This document shows, one piece after another, positions 1 to 63,130 of a stretch of 64,000 nt of DNA. Source of the DNA: Arsenophonus sp. NEOnobi-MAG3. Its GTDB lineage: Bacteria; Pseudomonadota; Gammaproteobacteria; Enterobacterales; Enterobacteriaceae. Made by a program: the position numbers and the translations under genes. The DNA lies in the NCBI GenBank assembly GCA_052171895.1, contig JBQMRN010000007.1, forward strand, positions 2,111 through 66,110. Direction: 5' to 3'. The notes beneath the pieces are model-generated. The model did no database searches. It saw only the letters and a list, made by a program, of their open reading frames with translations, and was not told where the DNA came from. Position 1 is the stretch's first letter. Each line of letters begins with the position of its first letter.

Positions 1-827
1 ATAAGTTTTATTTTTAAAATAGCGCCTTTTTTGTTGGCAAATTGCCTCAAAAAGAATAGCCACAGAAAAATATTGTTTATCAGCAGCAGAGGTCTGGCGG
101 CAACTGTTTTATCAAAAATTTGGCGAATCTCTCAATCTTGAAATAAGATTAAAAAATATGCCGATTAATTCTGAATTAGGTTATAGTGCCTCCTCAGTAG
201 GAGGCAGCGCTGACAGCATTAAATAAATATAGCCAGTCGCCATTTTGATAAAAATAGCTTGTTATTAATGATTAGATAATTGGAAGGGTATATTGCTGGT
301 AGTATTCATTATGATAATGTTGCGCCCTATTATTTAGGGGCATCCAACTGTTCGTTGAACAAAATAATGTAATGAGTTAATCAATTCCTATTTTTGCTGA
401 TTGGATTTTGGTGATGGCTTACCTCTGAATCAAGATTGCCACGGCAGAAGTAAGGGTGATTTTACCTAGCCATTATCAACAGAAGAATACAATTAAGTAT
501 GGTCGATTATTAGCTGGTTTTATTCATGCCTGTCATACTTAGCAAACTAATTTAACGATTGATATGTTGCAGGATGTGATCGCTGAACTCTATCGAGTTC
601 AAGTATTGCCCGGTTTTATAGCAAACCGCAACAAAGTAAAAATATCGGCGCAGTTGCTTCTTGTATCTCTGGTTCTGGGCCGACATTATTTGCTATTTGC
701 TATTTCCTATGAAAAAAAGATAGCAGAAAAAGTGATGCAATGCTTAACATAATATTATCTAAAAAATACAGCAGATTTTGTGCATATGTGTCGTTTAGAT
801 CAACTTGGTGCAAGAGTGATAGATTAA
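1..827 (+). pseudogene. thrB: homoserine kinase pseudogene (5' end outside window)
   Basis: Fragmented frames give ThrB motifs: [69 protein letters not shown]. Many stops and frameshifts. Confidence 0.9.
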
Positions 828-829
828 AA

Positions 830-1359
830 ATGAGATTATATAATTTAAAAATTAAACTGAGTAGGTCAGTTTTTAGCAGGCAGTTAAACAAGTGCTTGGT
901 TAAGGAGCAGGGTCTTTTTCTCGCTTGATTTACTAAAACTGAGTTATAAAGCGCTAACTAAATGGTTACAATAGAATTTTATCACCGTAGTAAGCATATA
1001 TTATTAGCGCTTTATTAGCGATGAAATACCGTTTAAACAACTGATATAGAGTGGGTTAAGAATGCGTTTAATTTTCCGTTAGTTTGTTAAATCAATAGAA
1101 GAAAATATTACTAGCCTGGAGAGTTGTATCATGATCAAATCTTAGCATTCAAAAATTTTGGTGGCCGGTTTGTTTTATGGCATAAATTCCAAGTAATCAA
1201 CCTATTACTATTTTAACCGCTACTTCAATGGTAGGTAGCGTAGCGCCGGTGCACATACTTTTTATCGTTTCAAGAATATTCAGGTGATTATTATTGATTT
1301 GAAAATAAGATCACGTCTTTAACAGGAAAAGTTATTCTGTATACAAGAGAAGAAAATAT
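830..1359 (+). pseudogene. thrC: threonine synthase pseudogene, 5' part, cut by IS1595 (very decayed continuation possibly at 2423-2568)
   Basis: ATG at 830 reads MRLYNLK, followed by Q-GLF, AFISDEIP, ELYH---LAFKNFGGRF, ITILTATS and QEKLFC remnants. Directly follows thrB as in thrABC. Confidence 0.85.
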
Positions 1360-2422
1360 GGCTATGTTGGCAAAGGTTGTTGCTAGAATTTCTATACTAT
1401 AAGAAAGGATTTTTGCTAGAAGAGAGGTTATTATAAAAAAGCAAATAATTATCCCTCAAAGAGACTCTTTCTTCACTTTCCCTGCTAATATTAAAGCTGC
1501 ATTTCATTAGTTAGCTAGTTAGATTGCTGACAATCTGTTGGATGATGTCGATTCATGCATTGAAGCAACTCATTCCGCTTTATCTTGCCTATACTATTAC
1601 AGTAAATATCTTATCTGCTGGGAATATTCATTAGGGTTACAGTGCAATATCGTTGCAAAATCCCTGATTTTAGGAAAATATTTAACAATCATATTGGAAG
1701 TCTTCTGGCGAAAATTACATCATATGGATAAATGCTTTAGTTATTTGCATGTATGTTGCATAGCTTGACGTTACACGTGAGTTAGCGAAACAAGTAAGGT
1801 ATTAATTTAGAAACAGCGTTTAGAGCTGTCCTCACTGCTTCATTACTTCAGCTGGCGACAGATCAAGATAAATGTACTAAGTGTTATTGTTGAAGTCGAC
1901 GAGATATTTTCTCATAAATTCTTCAAATAGAAGCGTTATATCCTTCATATAGGAAAGCTAGAAAACACAAAAAAGGAAGACATAAAAGGAAAGAATGAAT
2001 CCGGGCGAGTCTTCCATAGCCTGAGATCAATAGTGGTCATGTGAGCGATGAGATGAGATTCTTAAAGAGTTTTATGCAGAGTATGCTTTAGCTGTTTTCT
2101 TGAGGCGAACATCGATAAAGAGTCCATCCTTTACTTGGCTGGAGCTAAATGGTATAAAACGTTTGCTAGGGAGTATGAAATTAATCACCATCGACTAATA
2201 AGGTTGAATAATTAGAGACTTATTGATAATGAATTTCATATTCAAGATATGAAGAGTTATATCAGACGATTAAAAGGATGCCTAAGTAGATTCCATTGTA
2301 TAGGGTTGTTTTATTTACCGAATTATCTGGCTTGAGAATATTGTTTGAATCCATAAGAATTGATATACAGACGTGGCTACAAATTGCTCTGCGAGCAAAG
2401 CAATAACCTTGCCAACATAGTT
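1360..2422 (+). mobile_element. IS1595-family element, degenerate transposase
   Basis: Left end GGCTATGTTGGCAAAGGTTGTTGC and inverted right end GCAATAACCTTGCCAACATAG. Remnants of an N-terminal Zn-ribbon (CP-C...GLQRY-CKS), VEVDE and FHIQ--SY-SRLKG. Homologous to 34330-34826, 35233-35990 and 58996-60036. Confidence 0.8.
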
Positions 2423-2568
2423 AAAACCATTCATAATATTTTATATATATATTCTTTCTCTAAAAGAGGCAACTTTGCATTTAATGTACTTTTTTGAATA
2501 TTCTGTGAAGTTAGTTACATTATTGTAATTGAATTTGAAGCTACTGTCTATTCCTCGGTTAATTAAGT

Positions 2569-3990: not shown

Positions 3991-4131
3991 CATGGCTGGA
4001 GTTGCGTGTCCGGGCATATCTTTGCCATTGCATTCCAAAAATAAAGGGCACCGTGGACCACCCCACTAAGCTTAGGAGATACAGTTGGCAACGATGTGCT
4101 CTTATGCCATTGAGAAGAAGCAGCTAAGTTT
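3991..4131 (-). mobile_element. IS256 internal fragment, cut by the oriIS end of IS91
   Basis: Minus-strand GALYFWNAMAKICPDTQ-Q matches the other IS256 copies. Confidence 0.8.
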
Positions 4132-5511
4132 ATGGTTAAGAAATTAAATAGCTCTTTAAGTGAAGAGCAAAAGTTAGCCATTTTTGCTAAATGGAGATAG
4201 AATTGGTTTATTGGGTGTCTATTGTCAGTTAAAATTTCATCAAAGTGTGTATTCTTTGACCTAATTCACTAATTTTAGAGATAAAAACCTTAAGTTAAGC
4301 TTAATAAGCATCGTTATTTTCAATTTAATGCATTCTTTCTAAGAAGAATTTTCTTCCTTATTTGGTAAAGTGTGTGAGCCTCATTAAAAAGTAGCCTGTC
4401 GTCACACAGAATGCATTTGTACAGATCTATGCGGAAGAATCCTTTCATCAAAATGACTAACCTCTGTTTTTGGGTGGTCGTCATCTCCAGTGTCTAATAC
4501 ACCTTCGGTAATAAACTGCTTTGTTTATTATTCAACAAGAAACAATAATAACGTACTATCTTAATATGCTTAGCGATGGGCATAGTGAAAGTAATGTGTT
4601 GCCAGTGCAAATTGGGTAAAATATAAGCACTGCTGTGCTAATCACAGTTTGGTAGCTTGACTCAGCATGAACTGCAGCTTTTGACTTACAGCTTTTGGAG
4701 AAAAACGGCTGTTGGAATCTTCAGAAGAGGCATAGCAGTAGGGCTTGGTTTTGATGGACACCCATGGCATAAAAGTGTTGTAGGTAAGTATTCGCTAGAC
4801 AGATAGACGGGTTCACGAGTTAACACTTTCACCCTGTTTTTCAAGAAAATTATTCCAGCTGTCATCAATGCTGAAAGCAGTTTAGTTTTTTGGTATACAT
4901 CTTGGTATCTGGGTAAATATTACCCTCTTGGTATCTTGCCAGAAAAATAAAAATCGTCCTTCTGTTCAAATTTGTCAGTTCTATTGGCTAAGTTATCTTT
5001 GTGTTTGTTTTATGGTAGCGAAGGAGACGTTGGATTATTCCTATTTCCTTATAGGTTATGAATTCATCATCAAGCATAGTTTCCTCATTTTCTCAATCAA
5101 TGCAGTTATATTCATCGTTATCAGGCTTGTCTGGGCTGTTTGTTTGAATGCAGGGATAATCGTGACTATAGGGGAATAATAGTTATGTATCAAAAAATTG
5201 GGAACTAAGTTGGAGGCATTGCTGTATGGCCTCTTTTTGGGTATCATGAAAAATTCAGTCGGTCTGTTATTATTAATTTCGGAAGGGGGATCATAAAGCG
5301 GTTCGGATAAACCAGACGCTATAATACGTGAAGTCACATGTTGTTTTTCTAATTTATTTGGAGGGTTACGCTTTTTAGGAGATTTATTTTGAGCCATCTA
5401 GATGAATTTCTTAAAAATTAATATATAGCGAAATATAAAACAGTATTCTAATCATGAATATCCCAGAAGCAGTATAGCTTTATCGTTCATACCATAGTGT
5501 GTGCTATTTTC
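4132..5511 (-). mobile_element. IS91-family rolling-circle element with internal deletion of the catalytic core
   Basis: oriIS-like end ATGGTTAAGAAATTAAATAGC at 4132 and terIS-like end near 5511. TnpA remnants include the MY---KLLF start, C--C--C and WQHITFTMPH. Sequence jumps at ~4572 from the KMVRYY region to HITFTMPH, removing the HUH and YxxxY motifs. Upstream ORF remnant at 5056-5397. Confidence 0.8.
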
Positions 5512-5619: not shown

Positions 5620-6197
5620 TTAGTGAGGGTAGTGGTATTCCAAGAGAGACCATATGCTCTCACTGAGAAGCTCTCCTTAATGAGTTTCTCAGTGAAAATT
5701 ACCGGTGAGAGAGATGCCTAGTAGCTATGCTATGATAGCAACTTTTCGATGTTTTTTGCACGCTTCAGTTAAGGTGATAGCAACGAGCTGTTGAAGCATA
5801 TTCCGTTGCCGATTGGTATATCCCCTCTGGGGGGACCCTTAGGCACTTTACTCTCAATATTGCTAATACCTGTCTGTATAGTATATTTTGGCAAATAATA
5901 ACCATTACGGACGACGGCGCAACATGACGGCTGCGAGAATGCAGTATGTTCAGGATGTTATTGCAGCATGACTTTGTGCTCATGCCTCAAAGGCGGTGGC
6001 TATCAGATGCTTGGCAGGATTACTACGGATGAGTTTATACAAGGGAACAGATGTGATATCTAGTTTCGTGGATACTTGGTATGGTAGACTTTTCATGGTA
6101 TATTATCTCTATATTATTGAAATTATTGATAAAATTAATTAGCAGGAAATACGCCAGCATCTTTAAAATCCAATACACAAGAAATGAGCCTAAACTC
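5620..6197 (-). mobile_element. IS256 5' half
   Basis: Left terminal repeat at ~6175-6197 on the minus strand. Colinear with the first ~550 nt of the other copies. Confidence 0.85.
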
Positions 6198-6610
6198 TAA
6201 GAAAATTATTTTCCATATCTATTTTTTATTTGTTGTTTATTCTTTGTTATTTATTAGGCTAGATTAATTATATTTTTGTAATTTAGAGTATTAAGTTGTG
6301 ATGGACATCATATTAATTAGTTTTCAGATTAATATTCGATCAAATTTGTATTATATATTTCGATGAAAATTAGTTTTATATTTTATTTAATTTCTATTAA
6401 ATCATTATTTTCTATATGTTTTGGAAAATATTAAGTTGATTTTTTATTTTCTATGCCCTCCTGCGAGGGAGTGATTTCATTTATGGCAATGAAGTAAAAT
6501 AGACAATAAAGTAAAAATTACTCATCTAATTATTAATGACTTAACAAGATTATTCTGAATTAGATTTATTAGTCATTTACTTGCTAGTAAATTTATTTGC
6601 TAAATTTATC

Positions 6611-6664
6611 TGAGATTTAATAAGAAAACCAATCAGTTATGATTGGTTTTCTTATTAAATCTCA
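6611..6664. repeat. perfect 25-bp inverted repeat with 4-nt loop, immediately 3' of the decayed tRNA (possible perfected terminator)
   Basis: TGAGATTTAATAAGAAAACCAATCA-gtta-TGATTGGTTTTCTTATTAAATCTCA, checked base by base. Confidence 0.9.
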
Positions 6665-6745
6665 AGCTACGTGAAAGGATTTTTACCCCTAGACTCCCGA
6701 TATCCAATGAGAGTGTACGCTGCCACAGGCTGCAATACATTCTGT
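6665..6745 (-). pseudogene. proL: decayed tRNA-Pro (proL) gene
   Basis: Minus strand CAGAATGTATTGCAGCCTGTGGCAGCGTACACTCTCATTGGATATCGGGAGTCTAGGGGTAAAAATCCTTTCACGTAGC resembles enterobacterial proL as I recall it (CGGCACGTAGCGCAGCCTGGTAGCGCACCGTCATGGGGTGTCGGGGGTCGGAGGTTCAAATCCTCTCGTGCCG). proL normally lies directly downstream of yejM. The T-loop TTC and acceptor stem are broken. Confidence 0.75.
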
Positions 6746-6825
6746 CCAATATAAACTTATTTTATTATAAAATTCATTTTAGTTCAGAATCAATATCAAG
6801 TACTACGACTGCTTGATTTTAAGCA

Positions 6826-8574
6826 TTAATTAATATAAAAATGGGTATATTCAGCAAAAGCTCTTAATAGTTGAGTTAAATCAGGTTTTTCATCTTTTAT
6901 TTTTTTACCTTTATCATCAAAGATATAAACCTTTCCATTTTGATTAATGTATAGCGTTTTATTGGTAAAGTTAATAATCAATGCTTGTTCATCACCTGAT
7001 AAAATCCAGGGTTGATTACGTTTAGGGGTAAAAAGATCTTCACCTTGAGAATAGTCTTTTGGTGAATTATCAACATACAGTAAACGTTGCATTAAGGTGG
7101 TCATAATATCTTGATGACTGGTTAGCTTATTAATCTGTAGCGAGCTATTATTGGGCCAATATACCCATAAAGGCACCTTCATTTGTTTAAAATTAAATTT
7201 ACCATTGTTACTGAGCCATTTTTTTGCTTCATGAGTCTCTGTATTGCTACTATTGTTTGCTGTAATGACGAGAACGGTATTGTTTAACATATTTTTTTGT
7301 TTTAACGTATCAAGTATGCGTTTAATCTCATGATCTAATTGTAATTTATTGTCACTTTGTGATTGATGATTATCAAAACCATTAAGATTAAGAAAAGAAA
7401 ACCAGCGAATATGGTTTTTTATCCTATATAACCATTTAATCCATTCATCGGTAGTTCTATAATCATTACTGGCAGTATTTTCTGGTAATGAATAATCTGC
7501 CAGAATTGCATGACGGAATAATGGCGAGTTAAATCCAGCCGATGAAAACAGACCAAATTGATAGTTTTGATATTTTAATGCTTCAAGTAGGGCGGAAGGT
7601 TTTCTGCTATTAAGTATACTATCTAAATAACTAGGTGATAAACCGTAGAATAGGCTAAATAGCGCGCGTTGATTTTGAATACCTGCACTGAGATGCTGAT
7701 TGAATTGTGTACTTATTGCTTTAACAGCATTTAATGCTGGCATATCTTCAGTAATATTTTGATAACTAAGATTATTAACGACAAGCAGTAATAAATTATA
7801 TTTTGGTGTTTGTTTTTTGTAGCTAAGTGGTTTAAGTGGATATTCAATAGATAGTGCTGAAGGATTGCCTTCTTGTTGTATTTTTCGTTGATATTCCATT
7901 TTGTCAAGATAACCATAGCGTTCAAGAAATTTTCGTGCTGTCATTGGATGACATAGCGGATAATTAGCTCGTTGCATAGTTATTGGGCGATAAAAATTTG
8001 CATCAGCCAAAATATACATTAAATGTGATGCAACAAATGCTATTATGAATATACTTACCAAGAGTTTAGTAAGTGGTTGACGGGTTAGGCTATTTAATTT
8101 TTGCCAACTCCAGGTAGCAAATAACATCTCAATTAAAAAAATAATTGGTACAGAAATAAACATCAACTCCCATTCTCGTACAATTTCACTGTTTTTAGGA
8201 TTTATTAATAATTCCAATAGTAATGGCGTTAAATGGAGGTTATAGTGCGAAAAAAAAACGATATCAAAAATAAGAAAAATTAGTATGCTTGTAGCAAGAA
8301 TGATGTATAGAAATCTTAGTAATCGCTCTGAACAAATAATGAAAGTGAGAGGAAAGATGATTAAAAGATAGCAGGCAAAAATAATAAAGCTAAAATGTCC
8401 AAGCCAACTGACAATAGCGTAAATGCGGCCGAATGATGTACTCGGCCAATCAAAAACAAACAGATATCGGCTACTTAATACTAAACTGAGTATTATATTA
8501 AATAACGTAAACCAATGTCCCCAGCTTATCATTTGGGAAATTTTTTTACGATAGTTTTGAGAGTTGGTTAGCAT
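6826..8574 (-). CDS. yejM: inner-membrane LPS homeostasis protein YejM/PbgA/LapC
   Basis: 582-aa ORF. N-terminus YRKKISQMISWGHWFTLFNI, five TM segments, YRPITMQRANYPL-HPMTARKFLE, C-terminal sulfatase-like domain. Confidence 0.95.
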   Translation of the reverse strand: MLTNSQNYRKKISQMISWGHWFTLFNIILSLVLSSRYLFVFDWPSTSFGRIYAIVSWLGHFSFIIFACYLLIIFPLTFIICSERLLRFLYIILATSILIFLIFDIVFFSHYNLHLTPLLLELLINPKNSEIVREWELMFISVPIIFLIEMLFATWSWQKLNSLTRQPLTKLLVSIFIIAFVASHLMYILADANFYRPITMQRANYPLCHPMTARKFLERYGYLDKMEYQRKIQQEGNPSALSIEYPLKPLSYKKQTPKYNLLLLVVNNLSYQNITEDMPALNAVKAISTQFNQHLSAGIQNQRALFSLFYGLSPSYLDSILNSRKPSALLEALKYQNYQFGLFSSAGFNSPLFRHAILADYSLPENTASNDYRTTDEWIKWLYRIKNHIRWFSFLNLNGFDNHQSQSDNKLQLDHEIKRILDTLKQKNMLNNTVLVITANNSSNTETHEAKKWLSNNGKFNFKQMKVPLWVYWPNNSSLQINKLTSHQDIMTTLMQRLLYVDNSPKDYSQGEDLFTPKRNQPWILSGDEQALIINFTNKTLYINQNGKVYIFDDKGKKIKDEKPDLTQLLRAFAEYTHFYIN

Positions 8575-8591
8575 GTAATATTTTATCTGCT

Positions 8592-8826
8592 AAATTAGTG
8601 AATTTTTTCTTCATTAAAGAAGCAAGTAATGCTTAAGAAAATATGCTACTAGCCGCGCTGCTAGGCTGAGTTAGCGTAGCAGTTGTAAATTAAGTTTTTA
8701 CCGTGTCAACTGATACTATCAATGATAGTATCAGTTTGATGCTTTATGTTTTTCTAATACTTTGACTAATGTTTAGGAGCAGATGTTTAATTTTCTTATC
8801 ACTATAACTTGATGATCGTGGGATAA
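8592..8826 (-). pseudogene. yejL: YejL pseudogene
   Basis: Minus strand P-SS-YSD---K-LL, VLEKHKA-TD, T-V-NLI and FNEEKIH* match YejL. Start codon lost (ATC), frameshifts present, syntenic just upstream of yejM. Confidence 0.8.
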
Positions 8827-9077
8827 TAAAATCCTGAATGAATAAAGCTTTATGCTTTAGCGTATTGTTGCGTTTTTTGCTGTAGATTTTGTCTGATTTT
8901 ACTGCATAAATTCATTTAGTAATATTTTAAATTAACCTGTTTCCATGACTTATAGATCTTATTATATGCCAATAATACAAAAATGTTATATGAATAAATA
9001 TCAATTTTTGGCGTGAGAAAAGGTTATTAATATTTGACTATTATTTATCTTTATGCCATAAGGAAAGAAAGAAGTAA

Positions 9078-9113
9078 ATGATAATTCTGGATTATTAGCC
9101 AGATTGCTTTACA
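9078..9113 (+). pseudogene. yejK: first ~11 codons of nucleoid-associated protein YejK, cut by IS256
   Basis: CTG GAT (T) ATT AGC CAG ATT GCT TTA CA gives LD-ISQIAL, compared with YejK MSLDINQIALH. Divergent from yejL as expected. Confidence 0.6.
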
Positions 9114-10577
9114 GAGTTATTAGCAAATTTGGTGTATGGCGGTTGTTAGGTTACCATGCACTCTGATGATTTGTGAATTTGTTTGCATCCTTAAATTGGA
9201 CGTTATTTATCACTATGGTCGAGATTAAATCCCCTTGAGTGTGCTGGTTCCAGCTTTTCTGAGCAGACTAGTAGTAGTTAAATAGCATTGAAAGGGAAGG
9301 GTTGTTTTCTCGAATCACAGTTTTCGCGTGTCTGGCTTCGTATAGTTTCACTCGCAAAAAAACTGATTCTAATCGGATTCCTCGTTTTTATTAATACCTG
9401 TCTTCTGACGGAGAAGACGTAGAATGCCAGCAATTCTTCTTTTTGATCTTTCTTCAGCTTCTTCATCGCTGCAGAATATTTCTCTAAAAACCTTGGCAAG
9501 AAAACATCAAGGGCTTTATTAGTAGTATTATCCCAGCTCTCTCTGCTAGATACAGAGCTCCTTGCTGCAGCTAAGCCTTAACTTTTTGTTGCATGTCTTT
9601 TGGGAGTGAAGAGATCAGTACATTAACTGTTTTGTATACCCAACCACCTTTGTTGGTTGCTGCGTGTCAAGGAATATCTTTGCATTGTATTCAAAAACTA
9701 AAGGCACCATCTCCCCTAGCAAGCCTTGTGGATACGGTTAAGCTATGTGCTCGTAGCCTATTGAGAAATTCGGCCAAGTTAACTTCTGACTTTTAATAAC
9801 TATTTTTGACCATATCTAGCTCCTTATGTCCATGCGTTATTGACGCCAATAATAACCAGCAGGCAAAGACTATTATCTTGCGCCTGATAGGCGTGTATAT
9901 ATACCATCGGCAAAGAAATAAATGTAGCCTGGTATCGCTTAAATCACGCGAACACCATTACCTCTACTCTTCATGCCATTGTTGTTTCAATCTGCTGATT
10001 GATGATTGTACTTACTGGATGATGGTACTTACTGACAGAAAGACTATGTACTTTTCAGCGAGAATCGTCTAGAGCTTCGTAAAAATTATTGGTGGATATA
10101 CCCTCGAAGCTATATCCATGGTAGCAACTTTTTGAGGTTTTTTGCATATTTCAGATATGTTGATAGCAACGAGCTGTTGAAACATATTCTGTTCCTGCTG
10201 CGATCCCTGATCTTAGACAGTTTACTTTCAATATTCCAATATCAATTTGTATTATAAGTTTGCTCTAGCAAATAATCATTACGGACGACGGGGGGGATGT
10301 GTGAGACGCCCATCTAGAAGGCAGCGTTTTTAGCATATGTTGTCGCAGCATGCCTTCTAGCTCAGCTACAACGCGGCGGTGGTTATCAGCTGCCTGGTAG
10401 CATTACGGATGAATTTATGTAAGGGAATCACAGCTAATATCTGCTTTTGCCGATATTTGTAGGGTAGACTTTTCATGGCATATACCATCTCTCTCTTGTT
10501 GAAATTATTCACAAAATCAATCAGCAGGAACCCCCCAGCATCTTTGAAACTCTATACACTAAAAATGAGTATAACTC
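9114..10577 (-). mobile_element. IS256-family element, full length, degenerate
   Basis: Both terminal repeats present (GAGTTATTAGCAAATTTGGTGTAT at 9114; ATACACTAAAAATGAGTATAACTC ending 10577). No shared flanking duplication. Confidence 0.9.
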
Positions 10578-11535: not shown

Positions 11536-11538
11536 GTG

Positions 11539-50390: not shown

Positions 50391-50975
50391 ATAATTTTAT
50401 TTATCCTAGAGCAAAATTTATTGCTGGTGTTGATGAGGTTGGTCGAGGACCTTTAGTCGGAGCAGTGATAACAGCCACAGTGTAGATCCAAAACAGCCAA
50501 TAATAGGATTAGCTAATTCTAAAAAATTAACTGAAAATGGCATAGTAATATACTATATATTGAGATTTAAGACAAAGCATTATCTTGGAGTATTGGGCGT
50601 GTGCAGTGGCAAAAGAGATAGATAATATCAATATATTTCAGTCCACTTTTTACCCATGTATACGGAGTGAAGGGACTTATCACTATGCATGATTTTATTT
50701 TAAAAGATGGCAATAAGATCCCAGCTTTTCCTGTACCTTCTCAGGCGATTATTAAAGGTGACAGTTTAGTGCAAAAAATTAGTGCCGCATCAATATTACC
50801 AAAAGTGATCTGAGATAGAGAAATGAGAGACTTAGATATCCTTTTCCAGAGTATGCTTTTTCTCAACATAAAGGCTATCCAACGGTATTTTATCTAGAAA
50901 AACTAGCTCAACATGGTCAAATACAGTTTCATCGCAAAAGATTTGCCCATCTTCGCCGAAGACTGAATTGTAAAA
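50387..50975 (+). pseudogene. rnhB: ribonuclease HII pseudogene
   Basis: [28 protein letters not shown], then frameshifts and stops. Later remnants DGN, IKGDS-V--ISAASIL-KV, HKGYPT-F-LEKL--HG and HRK-F. No ORF of 60 aa or more. Confidence 0.93.
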
Positions 50976-50991
50976 ATATATAGTTAAGAAA

Positions 50992-53900: not shown

Positions 53901-54471
53901 TGAAATTAAATATTATACCAGTGGATTGAGATTAAAGGATGTGAATCCAACACCTCAGGGACAGATGTCAACGGTGGTTGGTTTAGCGATGACAGCTAAA
54001 GTACTAACCAGTAAACATGGCAATAGAATAGGCAAATGTACTTTAGATGATCGTTCTGGACGCTTGGATATAATATTATTTTCAGATACTTTAGAAAAGT
54101 ATCAGCATTTACTTAAAAAAGATAAAATATTAATTGCCATAGGTCAAGTCAGCTTTGATGATTTCAATGGTAATAATAAAATGTCTGTTCGTGAATTGAT
54201 GGATCTTAGTGAAGCTCGTGAAAAATATGCTAGAGCTATTGCTATTTCATTAACAGATAAACAAATTGATGACCAATTATTAAACCGTCTTCGTAGCATA
54301 TTGGAACCTTATCGTTCAGGAACAATACCGGTTCATCTTTATTATCGGAAGAAAGATGCTTGCGCTAAATTAAAATTAGGCGTCACTTGGCGAGTTGTTC
54401 CAACTGATAATCTTCTAACTGAGCTTCGAGCTCTGCTAGGTAATCAGCAGGTAGAATTAGAATTTGAGTAA
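50992..54471 (+). CDS. dnaE: DNA polymerase III alpha subunit
   Basis: [14 protein letters not shown] domain, [34 protein letters not shown] and YGFNKSHS. Confidence 0.99.
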
Positions 54472-54482
54472 ATAGGAATATT

Positions 54483-55442
54483 ATGAACCTTAATTTTTTG
54501 GATTTTGAACAGCCAATTTTAGAGTTGGAAGCAAAAATAGACTCATTAACAGCAATAAATCGTCAGGATACCAAGCTAGATATTGATCTAGATGAAGAAG
54601 TCACTAGACTTCGTGAAAAGAGTTTAGAGTTAACACGAAAAATTTTTTCTGAATTAGGTGCTTGGCAAATAGCACAACTTGCTCGGCACCCTATGCGACC
54701 TTATACTTTAGATTATGCTAAGCGTATATTGACGCATTTCCAGGAGCTAGCTGGTGATCGTGCTTATGCTGATGATAAAGCTATTGTTGGTGGGTTGGCT
54801 CGATTGGATGGGCGTCCAGTAATGGTTATTGGTCATCAGAAGGGGCGTGAAACAAAAGAAAAAATTCGACGCAATTTTGGCATGCCAGCACCAGAAGGAT
54901 ACCGTAAGGCTTTACGGTTAATGGAAATCGCTGAGCGTTTTAAGTTACCGATTATTACTTTTATTGATACACCAGGAGGATATCCTGGTGTTGGTGCTGA
55001 GGAACGTGGTCAGTCTGAAGCGATTGCCCGTAATTTACGTGAAATGTCTCGGCTTTTTGTTCCTATTATCTGTACGGTAATAGGTGAGGGTGGGTCTGGA
55101 GGTGCTTTAGCGATTGGTGTTGGTGATAAAGTCAATATGCTGCAGTATAGTACTTATTCTGTAATTTCACCCGAGGGCTGTGCTTCTATTCTTTGGAAAA
55201 GTGCGGATAAAGCACCATTAGCTGCTGAAGCGATGGGAATCACCGCTTTACGTTTAAAATCACTTAATCTAATTGATAATATTGTTGAAGAACCGTTGGG
55301 TGGCGCACATCGTAATTATGAGCAAATTGCGCATAATCTTAAACAGCGTATTTTAAATGATTTAAGTGATATTGATTTATTTAGTCCTGAAGAATTGAGA
55401 AACCGTCGTTATCAACGCTTAATGGAATGTGGTTATTGCTAG
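54483..55442 (+). CDS. accA: acetyl-CoA carboxylase carboxyltransferase alpha
   Basis: [32 protein letters not shown] and [10 protein letters not shown]. Confidence 0.98.
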
Positions 55443-55461
55443 TTTTGTAGTAGATAATAAA

Positions 55462-55515
55462 TAAAAAATAGAAATAACTATTAATTATTAATTTAATGAT
55501 TATTTCTATTTTTTA
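55462..55515. repeat. 16-bp perfect inverted repeat with 22-nt loop in the accA-tilS spacer
   Basis: TAAAAAATAGAAATAA ... TTATTTCTATTTTTTA. Very AT-rich, possibly a terminator. Confidence 0.6.
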
Positions 55516-55601
55516 ATGTTTAAAAATTTATTTTTTATTTTTATACAAAATGTTTATTTACAATAAATTATATCACTATTAATAGTATAATAAGTGAAAA
55601 T

Positions 55602-56975
55602 ATGGCAATAAATAATTTCGATAGAGGTAGTAAGAGTAATATGAATGCTGATGATGAGCCTAAATTACTGAACAAAATTATAAAAACCATCGCCTCTACC
55701 TCTACACGCCGAATATTGCTAAGTTTTAGTGGTGGACTGGATTCAACAGTTTTATTACATGCTTTAGTGTCATTACGTCAAACCACAGTGCCAAACCTTA
55801 AGATTCGCGCGGTTTTTATTCATCATGGACTTAATGATAAAGCTGATGATTGGGCTAGCCATTGCCAAAAAGTTTGTTTTGACTGGCAGGTAGAGTTTTA
55901 TTCACAGCATGTTTATATCGATCCAGCTAAAAAAGGGATCGAAGCAGCGGCCCGTGATGCACGATATCACGTCTTTCGTAAAATATTATTACCAGAGGAA
56001 ATTATTGTTACTGCCCAACATTTAGATGATCAAGCAGAAACTTTTTTATTAGCATTAAAACGGGGGAGTGGGCCAGCAGGTTTATCTTCCATGCCAATTT
56101 CTATTCCATTTGCTGATACCTATTTAATTAGGCCCCTATTATCATTCAGCCGTCAGCAATTAATTTTATATGCTCAAAAAAAATCGCTTTCTTGGATAGA
56201 AGACGATAGTAATCAAGATCAGCGCTATGATCGTAACTTTTTACGTTTAACTATAATGCCGCATTTTAATCAGCGTTGGCCGTATTTTTCGCTAGCAGTG
56301 GCAAGAAGTGCTAGTTTATGTGCAGAACAAGAAGCTTTATTAAATGAATTACTAAAAGATTATTTATCTCAGCTAATAATAGCAGAAGGAGCCTTGCAGC
56401 TTGATGCTTTAGTCAGTTATTCTGAAATAAAACGTAATGCAATATTACGTCGTTGGTTGAGTTTACATCGAATTTTGATGCCTTCTCGTGTTCAATTAAA
56501 ACAGATTTGGCAAGACGTGATCTGTGCGCGTCCAGATGCAGAGCCACAATTTATATTAGCTAACAATAATGTTATCCGGCGTTTTAAACAACAGCTTTGG
56601 TTGCTGCCACAATTTAACGATTTGACTAAAATTTGTTTAGCGTGGCAGCTGCCTGCTGCAATTAAATTGCCCGATAGCTTAGGTGTGCTAATAATCACAG
56701 ATCATGGAACGCAGTTTCGTGCGCCGTTATCAAATGAGAAGGTTACTATTCGATTTGGATTAAAAGGAAATATTAAAATTATTGGTCGTCAACACACTAG
56801 ACGGAGTAAAAAGCTTTGGCAGGAGTTAGGCGTAGCACCTTGGTTAAGGGATAGAACGCCTTTGATTTATTATAATGATGAACTTATTGCAGCTGTTGGC
56901 GTATTTATTACTCAATCAGGCCAATGTATTCAAGGGCAGCCTGAATTGAAAGTAAAATGGATAAGGGATAAATAA
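55602..56975 (+). CDS. tilS: tRNA(Ile)-lysidine synthetase
   Basis: SFSGGLDSTVLLH, HHGL, EAAARDARY, TAQHLDDQAET, RPLL and EDDSNQD-RYDRNFLR. True start may be the ATG at 55641. Confidence 0.96.
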   Translation: MAINNFDRGSKSNMNADDEPKLLNKIIKTIASTSTRRILLSFSGGLDSTVLLHALVSLRQTTVPNLKIRAVFIHHGLNDKADDWASHCQKVCFDWQVEFYSQHVYIDPAKKGIEAAARDARYHVFRKILLPEEIIVTAQHLDDQAETFLLALKRGSGPAGLSSMPISIPFADTYLIRPLLSFSRQQLILYAQKKSLSWIEDDSNQDQRYDRNFLRLTIMPHFNQRWPYFSLAVARSASLCAEQEALLNELLKDYLSQLIIAEGALQLDALVSYSEIKRNAILRRWLSLHRILMPSRVQLKQIWQDVICARPDAEPQFILANNNVIRRFKQQLWLLPQFNDLTKICLAWQLPAAIKLPDSLGVLIITDHGTQFRAPLSNEKVTIRFGLKGNIKIIGRQHTRRSKKLWQELGVAPWLRDRTPLIYYNDELIAAVGVFITQSGQCIQGQPELKVKWIRDK

Positions 56976-57034
56976 CCTTTATCTTAAATAGTAAGGCTTA
57001 TTATTGTGCCGGTATAATAATGGTTTCTTTTATT

Positions 57035-57260
57035 ATCTAGTAAAGATAATATAACTATCTTGTCAATTTCAGGATAAGTAAAACTAACAATATATCTAAT
57101 CGCAGATGCTTTTTTCACTAGCAATATCAACAAGCAGATATTTAATCCGTTTTTAAAACCAGATCAATTGATCTGGTTTATGATTATTTAGAACTACGCT
57201 TGCCAGCGTAGTTCTAAATAATCATAGTCATCGCAGTTGATTGGTTTGTATTTACTATAT
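57035..57260 (-). pseudogene. rof: Rho-binding antiterminator Rof pseudogene with its centre replaced by palindromes
   Basis: Minus strand KYKPINCDDYDYLEL...DLV-K-RI-YLLVDIA-EK-HLRLD-IVSFTYPEI compared with E. coli Rof YQPINCDDYDNLELACQ...DLVSRKNVEYLVVE...LRLDKITSFSHPEIG. Downstream of tilS on the opposite strand, as in E. coli. Confidence 0.85.
57156..57226. repeat. two abutting perfect palindromes (24-bp palindrome; 22-bp-arm hairpin with 4-nt loop)
   Basis: AAACCAGATCAA|TTGATCTGGTTT (57156-57179) and TATGATTATTTAGAACTACGCT-tgcc-AGCGTAGTTCTAAATAATCATA (57179-57226). Confidence 0.92.
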
Positions 57261-57442
57261 TTAAATGTAATCCCTTCTTTATCCCCCCTCACCACTATTA
57301 TTAAGTAGCAGTTATTTGCTGCCTCCTTTGAATATTTGTAATTTTAAGCATTTACTGCTTAAAGTGCATAATAGCACCATGCTTTTTTAAGAAAAGATAA
57401 AAAATCAGCATGAAATCTCACTTATTAATATTTATTATATGC

Positions 57443-58902
57443 GAGTTATTAGCAAATCTGGTGTATAACGGTCAGGCTACGCTTCGCTCTGATGCTTCAT
57501 GAATCTCTTCTGCATCCTTAAATTTTACGTTCTTTACTACCAGGGTTAGTAGGTTAAAATTCTATTACCCAGTTCCCGCTTTTTTGAGTAGACTGTACAA
57601 GCTTAAATACCATGAAAGTGTTGTTTTTTCGAACTACAGTTCTTCTCGCTTCGCTTTCGTAGTCTTAGTGTCGCAAAAGCCGATTCAATCGGATTCGTCG
57701 TTCCTTATTGACCACAAGTGCTCTGACAGGAAGTTGTAGAATACCAGAAGTTTTTTTCGATTTTTCTCCAGTGTTTTCATCGCTGTAAGATATTTCGCTG
57801 AAAAGATTAGATTAGCAAAAAAAAGGTTAAGAGCTTTATTAGCAAGATCGCCGGCCCTCTTGCTAGGCAGAGAGCTTCCCGTAGCTTAACTCAGCCTTAA
57901 CTTTCGATTGCATGCCTCTTTTTGAGGACTGACGCCAGCCCATTAGTTGTTTGTATACTCAACAGCGTTGGTTATGCGTGTCCTAGTGGGATATCTTTGC
58001 CATTGGATTCTAAAAACTAAGGCCACCGTCTCCCTAGTAAGGCTAGGATATAAGGTTAAGTCGCGCGCTCGCAGGGCACATTAATAAGTTCGCGGCTCTG
58101 TTTGATTTGACTCTCGATAACTATCTTCGAGCTGAACTAGCTCCTTTACATCCATACTCACTGACATAAATGATGACTATCAGAGCAGGAAAAAGCAATC
58201 ATCTTGCCTGATATGATTGTATATGTCATCGGCCCAGAAATAAACGTAGCGCGTATCACTTAAATCATACAGGCACCATATTGTCTATGTTCTTTCAAGT
58301 TATTGCTATTTCAATCTCCTGATTGGGTACTACCAGAGAGAACCATGTGCTTTTCAGCGAGAAACCTTCGCCCCTCGAACTTCGTGAAAATCATCGGTGG
58401 AGATGTGGTATTGCAAGAAGTATACAGCCAGCATGGTAGTAACTTTTTAAGGCTTTTTTCACGCTTCAGATAAGGCGATAGCAATGAGCTGTTGAAGCAT
58501 ATTCCGTTGCGGTTGCGGATCCCTATCCGCTCCCTGTGAATTTAGACACTTTAATCTCAACATTACCAATATCACTCTGTATAGTTAGCTCTGGTGAATA
58601 ATCGTTACAAAGACTACGAATGACTCCAGTCGAAGAAGGTGGGGTTCAGCATGTTATATATTATCGCAGCGTAGGCTTTGAGTTCAGCCTTAACGGCGGT
58701 AGCTATCAAGCTGCGCCACTGGCACCAGTATGGATGAGTTCATGCAAGGAATCAGAGGTAATATCTAGTTTTGCGGATACTTGTATGGGGGTAGACTTTT
58801 TTATGGCATATCATCTCTCTGCTGTTGAAATTATTCACGAGATCAATCAGCAGGATAGGTTAGTTTCTCTAAAACACTATACACCAGAAATGAGCATAAC
58901 TC
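57443..58902 (-). mobile_element. IS256-family element, full length, degenerate
   Basis: GAGTTATTAGCAAATCTGGTGTAT at 57443 and ATACACCAGAAATGAGCATAACTC ending 58902. Confidence 0.9.
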
Positions 58903-60141
58903 CAAGCAAAGAGCCTGCGTCTACTTTTACTAAGCGTTATTGGATATCTGAACTTAGCTTTGCTAAAGGGCAAAAACTAGATGATGTTGATAATCTGCCA
59001 TGTTGCCAAAGGTTGTTGCTAGAAATCCTTTATACTGTATGAAGAATTTTCTATATAGTATTATCATGAAAAAGTAAATAATCATACAGATCAAAGAGAC
59101 TCTTTCTTTACTCTCTACTAACATAAAGGTGCATCTCATTAGTTAGCTCAGTGACAATCTGTCGGATGATCTCGATTCATGCATTGAACCAATTCATTCT
59201 AGTTTATCCTGTCCATATTGCTACAGTGAACATGTTATCCGATAGGGAGATTCATTATGGTTAGAGCGATATTGTTGCAAAATCCTCGATTGTAGGAAAA
59301 GATTTAATAATCTTACTGGAAGTCCTCTAGCGAAACTATGTCAGAAGGGAAGGATAAATGCTTTAGTTATCTGTTCTGTATCTTGAATAGCTTGACTTTA
59401 CGAGAGTCAAGCGAAACAAACAGATATTATTTGAAAACAGCATTTAGATAGCGTCACTGCTTCCTTGCTTCATCGGCGAGAGCTAACATAAATACACTAA
59501 ATGGTATATTGTTGCAGTCGATGAAACATTTTTCCTGAATCCTTTAAAGGAAAGGTTATATTCCACATGGGAAAGCTAAAAATGCGGGGGAGCAGGAGAT
59601 AACAGGAAAAGAACAAATCGTGCGATTTTAATCGCTAGAGATCGACAGGTTCATGTAAACGATGAGATTCTTAAAGAGTTTAATGCAGAGAGAGTGTGCT
59701 AGCCGTTTTCTTAAGCCGATTTTTGATAAAGAGTCCATCCTTTTGTTGGATGGAGCTAATGGATGGTATAAAAGCTTTGCCAGCGAGCATGAAATTAGTC
59801 AATATCTTCTAATAAGGTTGGATAATCAAAGAGTTATTGGTAAGGGATTTTATATTCAAAATGTGAACAGTTATATCAGCCTATTAAAAGGATAGCTGAG
59901 TAGATTCTACAGTGTAGGGGTTGTTTTATTTACTTAATTATCTAGCTGAAAAAGCTTATTTGAAACCAGAATAATTAAAATATAGATATGGCTAAAAATT
60001 GCTCTGCGATCAAAAACAATCTTTTCCAACATAGCCTGATGATCGCAGGCATATTTCTTATCATTTGCAGACGACGCTGTTGTGTCAGCTCAGGAAGCGG
60101 AATCGTTTCCTCAGAAAACTGCTCTCTCGAAGATTTGCTGG
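58903..60141 (+). mobile_element. IS481 internal fragment (58903-58995 + 60037-60141) split by IS1595
   Basis: SKEPASTF-KRY-ISELSFAK...DDV continues after the IS1595 as DDRRHISYHLQTTL--AQEA, colinear with 38750-38950. Confidence 0.75.
58996..60036 (+). mobile_element. IS1595-family element with 8-bp target duplication
   Basis: Ends TGCCATGTTGCCAAAGG and CTTTTCCAACATAGCC. Flanks TGATAATC (58988-58995) and TGATGATC (60037-60044). DKESIL--DGA--YKSFA...FYIQNVNSYIS-LKG. Confidence 0.85.
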
Positions 60142-61051
60142 AAGTTATGCTCATTTCTGATCTATAGAGTTTCGGAGAGATGGTGGCGTAGTATCCTGCT
60201 GATTGATTTCGTGAACAGTTTTAACAAGAGAGAGATGATATGCCATGAAAAATCTACCACCATACAAGTATCCGCGAATATCCGCGAAACCAGATATTAC
60301 CTCTAACCTCTTGCATGAACTTATCTCTAACGGTTATTTAGTAGAGCAAACTATGCTTATTGAGACTCAGAAGCAAACTTAGCCGAACTTCTCAATGTCC
60401 TTCTGAGCGGCTAGGCTTAACTGTATCTTCCAAGCTTGTTAGGGAAAAACAAGGTACCTTTCGTTTTTTAGAACGCAATAATAAAGATATTCTCAGACAC
60501 GCAGTATCAATGCTATTTGGTATACAAAACAACTAATGTGCTGACTTCACTCTCCAAAGATATGGAATAGAAAATTAAGGCTGAGCTGCACGGGAAGAGA
60601 GGGGGTCTTGTCCGGCCCCCTCTCTGCCTAGTTAGAGACCTGTGATGCCGCTAATAAAGCCCTTGATGTTTTGTTAGCAAGGTTTTCAGCGAGTATCATG
60701 CAGAGATGAAGAAATTGAAAAAAGATCGAGAAGAACTGCTTGCATTCTACGACTTTCTGTTAGAGCGCTAGAAGCGTCAATAAGAATAATAAATCCGATT
60801 GAATCAGCTTTTTTGTAACAGTGAGACTTGAGGCTACGAAGCTAACAGGCAAAAAACTGTAGTTTAAGAAAAACAACCATTTCAATGGTATTTTAGCTGT
60901 TATAGTCTGTTCAGAAAAGCACCGGCTAAGGATTTGACCTGCTGACCTTTGTGTGTAAAGAACGTCTAATTTAAGGATGAAGAACAGATTCACGAAGCAG
61001 CAGAGTGGAAAAATATGGATGACCGCTGTATACCAGATTTACTAATAACTT
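60142..61051 (+). mobile_element. IS256 with internal deletion
   Basis: Both terminal repeats are recognisable. About 500 nt of the N-terminal transposase region is missing at ~60330-60345. Confidence 0.85.
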
Positions 61052-61359
61052 AGTATTCAGAAATCCATGTTGCAGGTTAGTAAAATTTCCTAATAATTAT
61101 TCTCGGTAAATGAGAAAATTTGAGCAAATTCAATGGTTAAAATGATATATGTTTTATAGCAAAATGGACGTCATCTAATGACGGAGTTATCAATCAGCTT
61201 GAAGTCAACTTAGTAGTATTTTAGTCCGAGAGAATACTTTTATTCAATTTATTATAGTGTAATAAATGAGATTGAAAATAATAGTATTAATAGATATTGC
61301 TTAAATATTGAGGTAGTGAATTCCAGCTGACTAATAACGTTGATTTAATTAAATTTTTA

Positions 61360-61640: not shown

Positions 61641-61646
61641 AGATGG

Positions 61647-62501
61647 TTATGATTTTCTCTTTTCTAACGTTCGATGACGTGACTGAACATTTTTGCCTCT
61701 TGAGCAAAAGTAATCAGCTAGTTGTTTGGCAACATAAACTGAACGGTGTTTACCGCCGGTACAACCGATAGCAATTGTCAAATAGCTACGGTTATTAGAC
61801 TCTAACATGGGTAACCATAATTCAAGATAACTACGTGTTTGATAAATAAAATTATGAACTTCTGTGTATCGGTCAAGAAAGGCCGCAACAGGGTGATCAA
61901 GACCTGTCATAGGACGTAATTTGGGATCCCAATGTGGATTAGGTAAAAAACGGACATCAAATACATAATCTGCATCGATCGGAATACCATGTTTAAAACC
62001 AAAGGATTCAAATACCATAGTCAATTCACGTTCTCGTTTACCTAATAAACGTGCTCTAAGCATTTCAGCCAGTTCATGTACTGACATTTCAGAGGTATCG
62101 ATAAGTAAATCGGCGCGTAAGCGGAGTGGCTCTAATAGATCATTTTCTTCATCAATAGCATTTTCTAATGATAAATTTTTGCTGGAGAGTGGATGTAGAC
62201 GGCGTGTATCACTATATCTTCTGATCAGTGTATTACGATCTGTATCAAGAAAAAGTAATTGCGGTAAAAAACTAGCCGGTAGATTTTTTAAAGCTTTTTC
62301 AAAAATTATCGGCTTGTATGGCATATTACGAACATCAATACTCACGGCAGCAGAAGTTTGTCGTTCAGCAAGTATATTTGCTAATTTTGGCACTAAAATA
62401 ACGGGTAAATTGTCAACACAATAAAAACCCATATCCTCCAGTGCTCGTAGAGCAACTGATTTACCTGAACCAGAACGCCCACTGACTATCATCAGCACCA
62501 T
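61647..62501 (-). CDS. rapZ: RNase adapter RapZ (YhbJ)
   Basis: [51 protein letters not shown] and [12 protein letters not shown]. Confidence 0.97.
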
Positions 62502-62566
62502 AACTCATATCCATTAAGTTTCTTCAGAATAAAAAAAATTTTTTGATTTAGATTTTTTAGAAACAG

Positions 62567-63032
62567 TTATTCAGTAATGATTTTATAGAATTCTTCATTA
62601 CTTTTCTCAGCACGTAAACGACGACATAGGTTCTTATCAGCTAACCGTTTTGCAATTAAAGAGAGTGTATATAAATGTATTTTATATTTCTGCAAAGGAA
62701 TTAATACTGCAAACAGTAAATCAACTGATTGATTATCAATGGCATCAATAGCAATTTGTTCATCTAAATGGAGAAAAACACCAACTGCGGTGAATGAATT
62801 GTATTTATTTAATTTTCCATGAGGGATTGCAATACCTTCACCGATACCAGTTGTGCCGACTTTTTCACGGGTTAATAATGAGTCAAAAACAATATTTTCA
62901 GGTACATTCAGTGCAATTGAAGCAACTTCACTAATAATCTCTAGTGCTCTTTTTTTACTCGTGCAATGTACATTATTTAGTGTACATGATGGTGTTAATA
63001 TTTAGCTTAATGATAATTTTTTTATTGTTCAT
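62567..63032 (-). pseudogene. ptsN: EIIA(Ntr) gene with lesions only at the 5' end
   Basis: The ATG at 63032 frame stops after 19 codons. The PtsN frame (SKKRALEIISE...TREK-GTTGIG-GIAIPHGKL...DLLFA...KRLADK--CRRLR) is open for ~144 codons to TAA at 62567, but follows an A-run frameshift and an in-frame TAA. Confidence 0.85.
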
Positions 63033-63035
63033 TAG

Positions 63036-63130
63036 ATTTATTCGCTTATGGTAAAATATACCAGATATTCATAATGAATATCTGGTATGAACAATACTGG
63101 CATTGATAATCTATATTTAGTGTCATAGTG
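63036..63130 (-). pseudogene. hpf: collapsed remnant of hibernation factor hpf containing a 31-bp palindrome
   Basis: AAGGGCACACT-ATG ACA CTA AAT ATA resembles the hpf start (GACACT ATG CAG CTC AAC ATT). Position directly upstream of ptsN; only ~95 nt left. ATACCAGATATTCAT-a-ATGAATATCTGGTAT at 63058-63088. Confidence 0.5.

Follow-up and report, generated by a model that had tools for sequence, protein, structure and literature searches.

Derived palindromes in the decaying DNA of an Arsenophonus genome carry the signatures of replication template switching

This study concerns a stretch of 64,000 nucleotides (hereafter the window) from the metagenome-assembled genome (MAG) Arsenophonus sp. 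NEOnobi-MAG3 (contig JBQMRN010000007.1, positions 2,111–66,110 of the forward strand) and the perfect inverted repeats, or palindromes, found in its decaying DNA. The window has a GC content of 36%, and 57% of it lies outside intact genes: 23 intact enterobacterial housekeeping genes make up 27.6 kb in total, and the other 36.4 kb consists of pseudogenes, spacers and many decayed repeat copies with a mutual identity of just 65–78%. Its TilS protein is 87–90% identical to Arsenophonus proteins. All six perfect repeats with arms of 12–25 bp fall outside the intact genes: at 6611–6664, 3' of a decayed proL gene (25-bp arms, 4-nt loop); at 57179–57226 (22-bp arms, 4-nt loop) and 57156–57179 (12-bp arms, no loop) in the rof pseudogene; at 63058–63088 in the hpf–ptsN spacer (15-bp arms, 1-nt loop); at 8708–8736 in the yejL pseudogene (14-bp arms, 1-nt loop); and at 38378–38408 in the yaaA pseudogene, where a perfect core (12-bp arms, 7-nt loop) belongs to 17-bp arms with one bulge over 38373–38414. 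Comparison with related genomes gives good support to the view that the long palindromes are derived and have been repeatedly perfected by template switching in dead DNA.

The number of perfect palindromes was compared with dinucleotide-preserving local shuffles. In the whole window, six repeats have arms of at least 12 bp (loops of 0–7 nt) against 0.13 expected, and the longest arm among 60 shuffles was 13 bp. In the DNA outside intact genes (36.4 kb, GC 35.7%), 40 repeats were observed against 11.75 expected for arms of at least 8 bp, 16 against 3.3 for at least 9 bp, nine against 1.0 for at least 10 bp and six against 0.08 for at least 12 bp, and none of 100 shuffles reached the observed counts. 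The corresponding figures for the intact coding sequences (27.6 kb, GC 36.5%) are seven against 9.35, three against 2.4, one against 0.7 and none against 0.07, no more than chance would give, and the longest palindrome there, with 10-bp arms and no loop in aroA, is shared with the sister genome described below. An initial annotation, made by eye, had listed eleven inverted repeats, all of which are present at or within a few bases of where it placed them, and it had proposed that such repeats are denser in dead DNA than in intact genes and composition-matched shuffles, with none of comparable length in intact genes; the counts bear this out, and the long palindromes are not ancestral. Mirror repeats and two hybrid pairing rules, applied to the same non-intact DNA, gave 11–16 repeats at arms of at least 8 bp and 0–1 at arms of at least 10 bp, which is the shuffle expectation. 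The palindrome counts thus exceed those of the control pairing rules, as template switching predicts, and the excess is specific to Watson–Crick complementarity rather than a product of low complexity.

Chance or low complexity in AT-rich decaying DNA, or inheritance of ancestral palindromes, would suffice for the shortest repeats, since 11.8 repeats with arms of at least 8 bp are expected in the non-intact DNA. The list in the initial annotation accordingly stands for the long palindromes, but its 8–9 bp entries, namely those in the thrB pseudogene (187–206, 8-bp arms, 4-nt loop; a weak GHMP_kinases_C match lies nearby), in dead DNA labelled mog (36478–36500, 9-bp arms, 5-nt loop) and in a decayed IS256-family copy (32128–32153, 9-bp arms, 8-nt loop), are individually within the range of chance; the mog site has no alignable orthologue in the sister, and its identity as mog was not confirmed. 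An apparent repeat at 27509–27535 (10-bp arms, 7-nt loop) is likewise a by-product, because ATGAATTCAT is self-complementary within a perfect 17-bp tandem duplication (AATGAATTCATCATCTA twice) of dead DNA at 27508–27541. For the long palindromes this explanation is next to negligible: six repeats stand against 0.08 expected, no shuffle reaches the counts, the mirror and hybrid controls are at expectation, GC content is equal in the two classes of DNA and the perfect forms are absent from relatives. The tandem duplication itself suggests that slippage-type template switching also leaves fresh footprints. A larger structure, a 215-bp inverted repeat formed by two back-to-back copies of a second repeat family at 34616–34827 and 35232–35446, was also observed; these copies are 91.6% identical to each other, compared with 76–81% for other copies of the family, which could be due to a recent inverted duplication or to arm homogenisation on a larger scale.

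The direction of change was read from related genomes. A contig of Arsenophonus sp. NC-PE1-MAG3 (loci L089 and L090), reached through a protein search with a TalB fragment that otherwise returned mostly short fragments, is collinear with the window over 29.2–63.9 kb, has the same rearrangements and some insertion sequence (IS) insertions in common, and is about 80% identical in dead DNA and 86–87% identical in mainly gene-bearing blocks; it was taken as the sister lineage for polarising changes. Outgroups were A. apicola (L002), the Aphis craccivora symbiont (L005) and a Logan contig (L004) for the rof, accA and rnhB region, eight Arsenophonus-clade genomes (L006–L013, seven of them aligned) around yejM, and four further loci (L086–L088 and L092) around rapZ. 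The five longest palindromes were polarised by three to seven relatives and yaaA by the sister only. In both the window and the sister, the tilS–rof region is joined to the rapZ–ptsN region, and the sister contig, though collinear elsewhere, lacks a 3.6-kb block of the window (57450–61054) made up of fragments of IS256-family and other repeats; together these would indicate IS-mediated rearrangement both before and after the two lineages split.

The palindromes might also be artefacts of assembly or polishing, or members of a small palindromic mobile-element family such as a miniature inverted-repeat transposable element (MITE), a repetitive extragenic palindrome (REP) or a Rickettsia palindromic element (RPE). 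Run SRR34985935 yields Logan contigs that match the window at 100% identity over 5784–9142 and 52605–57661, so that four long palindromes (proL, yejL and both in rof) recur in a second assembly, with the proviso that these contigs may derive from the same reads; the proL and yejL palindromes are in contig L091 and the 22-bp rof palindrome in L001. Intermediates at the same sites in the independently assembled sister MAG, for both rof palindromes and the hpf–ptsN palindrome, also speak against an artefact. As for a mobile element, no second copy of any palindrome arm was found in the window when 1–3 mismatches were allowed according to arm length, there are no target-site duplications and the arms are built of local ancestral sequence, which makes this pair of explanations most improbable. 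Three further candidates were rejected: transposon excision footprints, as relatives carry no IS at the sites and P-nucleotide tracts are much shorter than the arms; the repair of double-strand breaks by fold-back, which would give large inverted duplications and not local rewriting; and an association with restriction or Dam sites, as the palindrome centres share no motif.

The clearest single event is that at 6611–6664, directly 3' of the decayed proL tRNA gene and downstream of yejM, on the minus strand. ARAGORN detected no tRNA in the 64-kb window and a tRNA-Pro(GGG) at the proL position in three relatives; the decayed tRNA-Pro(GGG) gene occupies about 6665–6745 (minus strand) in the window. 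In seven relatives the gene is followed by a terminator, with an 11-bp stem (13 bp in Arsenophonus of Bemisia tabaci Q2) and a T-run; the ancestral stem is AAAACCAATCA/TGATTGGTTTT with the loop GTTA. In the window the proximal flank is unchanged, and from the loop onward the sequence is the exact reverse complement of flank, stem and loop: the reverse complement of the left arm plus GTTA is TAAC followed by the new 25-nt right arm TGATTGGTTTTCTTATTAAATCTCA. The distal arm has thus been replaced by the reverse complement of the proximal flank, with about 8 nt gained, the T-run lost and the loop AGTTAT inverted to ATAACT, and the DNA hairpin energy has gone from -10.2 kcal/mol in the ancestral form to -24.3 kcal/mol. 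One four-point switch, primed by the 11-bp stem and copying back on a same-sense strand, would explain the whole event, since a single excursion would invert the loop, lengthen the stem by 14 bp (from 11 to 25 bp), add about 8 nt on balance and remove the T-run. The terminator loop is also inverted (ATAACT), on a 13-bp stem, in the Bemisia tabaci Q2 symbiont (L007, 3679–3708), the six other relatives having AGTTAT or AATTAT; this may go back to an ancestor shared with the window or to a separate flip of the loop.

The yejL pseudogene has lost its ATG and carries several indels. At 8708–8736, five of the seven relatives carry AACTGAT-CTATCATTGATAGTATTAGGT, with 11 of 14 pairs at homologous columns and a 6-bp perfect core; pairing among all seven ranges from 7 to 12 of 14, and none has the perfect form. 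The window differs by an added A on one arm and by two substitutions, T>C and G>T, on the other. All three make for pairing, which is complete (14 of 14), and the hairpin energy is -10.1 kcal/mol compared with -1.6 kcal/mol for the ancestral form.

The rof gene is intact, with 88 codons, in A. apicola and the Aphis symbiont, and is a pseudogene in the window. At its 12-bp palindrome (57156–57179), the outgroups (GCAAATCAATTGCTTTGC) have 6–9 of 12 pairs at homologous columns, the sister has nine and a perfect core (GATCAATTGATC), and the window has all 12. The rewritten right arm (TTGATCT) and a 26-bp deletion are shared by sister and window, and the extension to a 12-bp stem is found in the window alone, which reads as a two-step history. 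At the adjoining 22-bp palindrome (57179–57226), pairing is 12–14 of 22 in the outgroups, 13 in the sister and 22 in the window, and the sister already has some of the corrections seen in the window (TATGGTTA>TATGATTA and TGAA>TAGA). Most of the left arm now reads as the complement of the right arm in its ancestral form, the right arm has gained a T that matches the left, and the loop TGCC agrees with the inverted ancestral GACA at three of four positions. The hairpin energy is -21.2 kcal/mol in the window compared with -2.0 kcal/mol in the ancestral form, which folds no better than its shuffles (z = -0.03). Elsewhere in the pseudogene, a small derived palindrome at 57031–57051 (8-bp arms, 5-nt loop) reads TATTATCTagtaaAGATAATA in the window and TTATGATCCAGAATGATCA in the outgroups; at the same place the sister has made a different palindrome (ATATCTTTCTTT..AAAGAAAGATAT; 12-bp arms, 11-nt loop). 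Across rof, which was chosen for having palindromes, 29% of columns are derived inside palindromic spans (the 26-bp deletion set aside) compared with 26% outside.

The initial annotation had assigned the palindrome at 63058–63088 to hpf; it is indeed present, but sits in the hpf–ptsN spacer about 30 nt upstream of the ptsN start, as part of a decayed rpoN–hpf–ptsN cluster. Four relatives have 6–11 of its 15 pairs, and a fifth (L092) is also without the perfect form. A change AG>GA is common to window and sister and A>G is specific to the window; both create pairs, and the hairpin energy is -11.6 kcal/mol compared with -3.5 kcal/mol ancestrally. In this cluster, rpoN and hpf appear decayed in the window and in several other Arsenophonus MAGs. 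The adjacent ptsN (62570–63121, minus strand) keeps a full-length PTS_EIIA_2 domain (E = 4e-27); its 5' poly-A tract has 7 A in the window and 9 A in relatives, with the frame shifted relative to the ATG, so that ptsN may be either a fresh pseudogene or a gene rescued by slippage. At the yaaA site the sister (L089) keeps 7 of 12 pairs, and in the window the left arm has become the complement of the right through a 4-nt deletion and substitutions. A comparison of reading frames with E. coli YaaA suggests that the length of the sister at this site is ancestral.

Three hairpins lie in decayed copies of the main repeat of the window. Single copies gave no match in a Pfam search; with a consensus of seven copies, three translated fragments matched Transposase_mut (PF00872; E = 6e-14, 3e-6 and 4e-10), which identifies the element, from its predicted protein, as one with a Mutator/IS256-type DDE transposase. 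The claim of the initial annotation that other copies lack the perfect hairpins was upheld by copy alignments at all three sites. The near-perfect hairpin at 5660–5695 (14-bp arms, one mismatch) owes its right arm to a 6-nt insertion and substitutions that are lacking in six other copies, which have just TCAC..GAAG/CTTCGTGA. In place of the 32128–32153 hairpin, other copies have a shorter one of different sequence (CCGCC..GGGCGG); both arms have changed together in the window copy, and the hairpin is absent from the orthologous IS copy of the sister MAG. The hairpin at 60596–60625 had been noted with 12-bp arms; it is present, but its perfect arms measure 10 bp around a 10-nt loop. Seven other copies are without about 20 nt that the window copy has there, in a G-rich stretch where the alignment is uncertain, and just downstream the other copies share an ancestral 7-bp hairpin, CTCTCTG..CAGAGAG.

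Taken over all sites, almost every change that helped to build the long palindromes favours pairing, and the changes often came in several steps and affected both arms. The derived multi-base changes are reverse complements of adjacent sequence and start from complementary seeds of 6–11 bp; net indels accompany the events (26 bp lost in rof and 4 nt in yaaA, about 8 nt gained at proL and 6 nt in the 5660–5695 IS copy); the loop is inverted at proL and at three of four positions in rof; and hairpin energies have gone from near the shuffle level to z = -4.6 to -12.5. In most events the left arm (in plus-strand coordinates) was rewritten, at loci where GC skew is weak or mixed and in a region that IS elements have reshuffled. 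Template switching is recognised in the literature by arm homogenisation, by the lengthening of arms and by inversion of the spacer (PMC8604942, PMC13100816, PMC5453318, PMC8794818), and the reverse-complement copying, the net indel at the switch and the loop inversion seen here match template-switch mutation (PMC5453318, PMC8794818, PMC5941160). The initial annotation had described the process as the perfecting of quasi-palindromes. Perfecting did occur, but several starting sequences were poor quasi-palindromes, as the z score of the ancestral rof segment shows, and the process would be the creation or extension of hairpins from 6–11-bp seeds as much as their correction.

We therefore favour, with a probability of roughly 0.8, the reading that the palindromes are footprints of replication template-switch mutations accumulating in unselected DNA. 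Having just finished one arm of a short inverted repeat, the 6–11-bp seed, the growing strand would leave its template, pair with the complementary arm (its own, or that of the same-sense strand at the other side of the fork), copy backwards and return. The stretch made during the excursion would be the exact reverse complement of its neighbour, so that mismatches and bulges would vanish and the stem would outgrow its seed; the return to the template would add or drop a few bases at that point, and an excursion that crossed the loop would invert it. Longer stems would fold more readily and the same site would be hit again with either arm as template, giving stepwise growth, changes on both arms and mostly perfect long repeats. 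In intact genes selection would remove such changes unless they were tolerated, and they would persist in pseudogenes, in dead IS copies and behind a dead tRNA gene, in its terminator. What we infer from these comparisons is the mechanism at the molecular level, the self-reinforcement of the process and whatever connection it may have with the loss of repair genes.

The long repeats are mostly perfect: of the eight that have 12 or more matched pairs, two contain 1–2 mismatches and six none, where simple birth and decay would give no fewer imperfect forms than perfect ones. By our own binomial estimate, at least six perfect repeats of eight has a probability of about 0.02 if simple birth and decay fills the mismatch classes about equally. 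The excess accords with the model of Lavi et al. (PMC5941160), where the chance of correction rises with arm length, and a very recent burst may be an alternative source of the excess of perfect forms. Both the perfect forms and the changes on both arms could also be produced by heteroduplex correction of a hairpin or cruciform, in which the arms pair within one strand (for example the lagging-strand template) and stem mismatches are repaired in either direction, as in gene conversion. At yejL and at the 22-bp rof palindrome both arms have moved toward each other, and bidirectional patch repair would do this in one event; a contiguous reverse-complement tract cannot, so that at least two template switches per site would be needed. 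Compensatory pair changes in the accA terminator and in dnaE, described below, would suit such correction as well. However, it cannot extend a stem into non-complementary flanks, as happened at proL (11 to 25 bp), it cannot invert a loop or give the 26-bp deletion and the 6–8-nt insertions, and the rof segment in its ancestral state offered no stable stem for correction. We regard it as improbable. A recurrence of template switching at the same sites would agree with the intermediates in the sister, with the sister's own rof palindrome and with the excess of perfect forms.

The near-perfect hairpin between the intact accA and tilS genes (55462–55515, 23-bp arms with two mismatches) was counted as dead DNA in the initial annotation, which does not hold: it is the ancestral accA terminator, present in relatives as a 14–15-bp perfect stem with a T-run, and probably functional. 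The long palindromes are derived at rof, yejL, proL, hpf–ptsN and yaaA, but not here. Window and sister each have an independent compensatory G:C>A:T change at adjacent pairs of this stem, for which selection and template switching are both possible, and the window has a 12-nt insertion in the loop. Such a case raises selection for hairpins, that is, for functional RNA or DNA structures (terminators, mRNA stabilisers or protein binding sites) kept or improved by compensatory evolution, as an explanation at large. The accA–tilS and ancestral proL hairpins are terminators conserved across Arsenophonus, where compensatory changes are expected. The long derived palindromes, on the other hand, lie inside the former coding sequences of rof and yejL (both intact in outgroups) and of yaaA; the extended palindrome at proL comes after a dead tRNA gene and has abolished the T-run; the derived palindromes are AT-rich, have no U-tract and are each unique and lineage-specific; and no Rfam family matched in the window. 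Selection is therefore a very improbable source of these palindromes.

An inverted repeat with 8-bp arms at 54085–54103 inside dnaE, an intact and essential gene, shows a similar history. The outgroups have GATGCGTT..AAAGTATC, which became GATACTTT..AAAGTATC in the ancestor of window and sister through two perfecting substitutions (Ala>Thr), and the sister later acquired a compensatory pair change (GATACCTT..AAGGTATC). Since this repeat was perfected in an intact gene, the palindrome process is probably not confined to dead DNA, and it is probably visible in dead DNA as nothing removes the changes there. Besides dnaE, accA and tilS, the intact genes include yejM, der, bamB, hisS, mprA, a porin gene, aspC, serC, aroA, the uppS–cdsA–rseP–bamA–skp–lpxD–fabZ–lpxA cluster, lpxB and rapZ.

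Several observations weigh against template switching as the explanation, or against its scope. The requirement for at least two events at yejL and at the 22-bp rof palindrome demands either site-specific recurrence or a different correction process. A cluster-based template-switch scan of the window against the sister recovered only one or two events (at hpf–ptsN), as differences in dead DNA at about 80% identity chain into overlong clusters. The yaaA event is polarised by only one relative and the E. coli protein sequence, and the 8–9-bp repeats cannot be polarised, as with about 10% divergence per lineage a loss in the sister is as likely as a gain in the window. Long perfect hairpins are no denser than in free-living relatives, so that an elevated rate would be conjectural; the molecular mechanism is read from sequence comparison.

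The initial annotation had called the process a major mutational force, and here the estimates do not follow it. Template-switch footprints would make up roughly 1–2% of the changed positions in dead DNA, as estimated from about 28 excess repeats in 36 kb, and arms of at least 12 bp are as dense (0.094 per kb) as at the loci of A. apicola and the Aphis symbiont, where the stems are terminators. The formation of palindromes is nonetheless established as recurrent and clearly detectable in this window. A further case is an Arsenophonus-like Logan contig of run SRR7014896 (L087, GC 23%), in which five perfect repeats with arms of 12–22 bp were found in 8.9 kb against 0.17 expected, all outside called genes (for example at 1908–1958, 2457–2491, 5345–5368 and 7693–7718). 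These repeats are unpolarised, as the dead DNA no longer aligns to relatives; they suggest that the phenomenon is general in decaying genomes of the Arsenophonus clade.

In E. coli, ExoVII restrains template switching, and none of xonA, xseAB, recJ and recBCD lies within the 64-kb window. ExoI and RecBCD are reported to restrain it in E. coli as well (PMC6357072 and Laranjo 2017 as cited there). Between lpxB and dnaE, the rnhB gene for RNase HII has several frameshifts and is a pseudogene both in the window (50391–50991) and in the sister (L090, 4754–5351); it is intact, with 200 codons, in A. apicola (L002), L004 and L005. In yeast, quasi-palindrome mutations become more frequent under high transcription when RNase H2 is lost (PMC3820800). 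By this analogy, rnhB loss as a possible cause of palindrome growth may be taken as a lead only. The 26-bp deletion in rof and the +1 frameshift in yejL are themselves parts of perfecting events. A broader proposal, that palindrome growth is a self-reinforcing, lineage-specific signature of decay, with a rate raised by the loss of RNase HII and possibly of other nucleases and with a contribution to gene death, is at present doubtful.

The mechanism is already known, and the window appears to be a new and unusually clean natural instance of it. In E. coli, quasi-palindrome template-switch mutation has been described in Ripley's model and studied with the lacZ QP5/QP6 reporters of the Lovett laboratory and the thyA hotspot (PMC7202029, PMC6357072). 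As in that system, imperfect repeats become perfect when several bases of one arm are rewritten with the other as template, small frameshifts appear or disappear and either arm can be converted (there in reporters for the leading and for the lagging strand); unlike the changes in the reporters, the events in the window are fixed evolutionary changes, and the stems outgrow the seed (from 11 to 25 bp and from about 7 to 22 bp). The four-point model of short-range template switching (Loytynoja and Goldman 2017, PMC5453318; Monttinen and Loytynoja 2022, PMC8794818) and the yeast studies (PMC8604942, PMC13100816) are also comparable, in that one reverse-complement copy makes or fixes a stem, with multi-base 'compensatory' changes, arm expansion and spacer inversion. 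Whereas those studies concern primates, rRNA genes and yeast, the window offers neutral dead DNA of a bacterial symbiont in a three-stage series.

Lavi et al. (2018; PMC5941160) reported that perfect inverted repeats are over-represented and conserved in Proteobacteria, and in their model imperfect ones are preferentially corrected. As in their data, the excess over the null expectation grows with arm length, and the predominance of perfect forms among the long repeats of the window fits the model; whereas they inferred maintenance from conservation in functional genomes, creation is polarised directly here, with no enrichment in intact coding sequences. Rho-independent terminators share with the accA–tilS and ancestral proL hairpins a stem and a T-run downstream of a gene, genus-wide, but the rof, yejL, yaaA, hpf–ptsN and IS palindromes have no T-run and the extended proL palindrome has lost its own. 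REP elements and bacterial interspersed mosaic elements (BIMEs), RPEs and MITEs are likewise short palindromes in non-coding or coding DNA of reduced genomes; they form multi-copy families with a common sequence, whereas the palindromes of the window are each unique and locally derived. A literature search found no paper on template-switch palindromes in symbiont pseudogenes.

In conclusion, the same sites have been caught at three stages, in free-living-like relatives, in a sister symbiont and in the genome of the window, and functional and dead DNA lie side by side at equal base composition. Clean, polarised natural examples from bacteria are rare because selection removes or confounds them, and template switching is otherwise known from reporters and from the statistics of large genomes. 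That multi-base 'compensatory' changes and new hairpins can arise without selection calls for caution in calling structured RNAs from covariation and in predicting terminators in reduced genomes, and clusters of palindromic changes violate the independence of sites in alignments, in dating and in estimates of pseudogene age for symbionts. Dead symbiont DNA could be used to measure the rate of template switching, its dependence on arm length, its strand bias and the effect of losing rnhB or exonucleases. If palindrome growth is indeed a self-reinforcing signature of decay, such DNA would provide a natural, selection-free readout of template-switch rate, strand bias and dependence on hairpin length.

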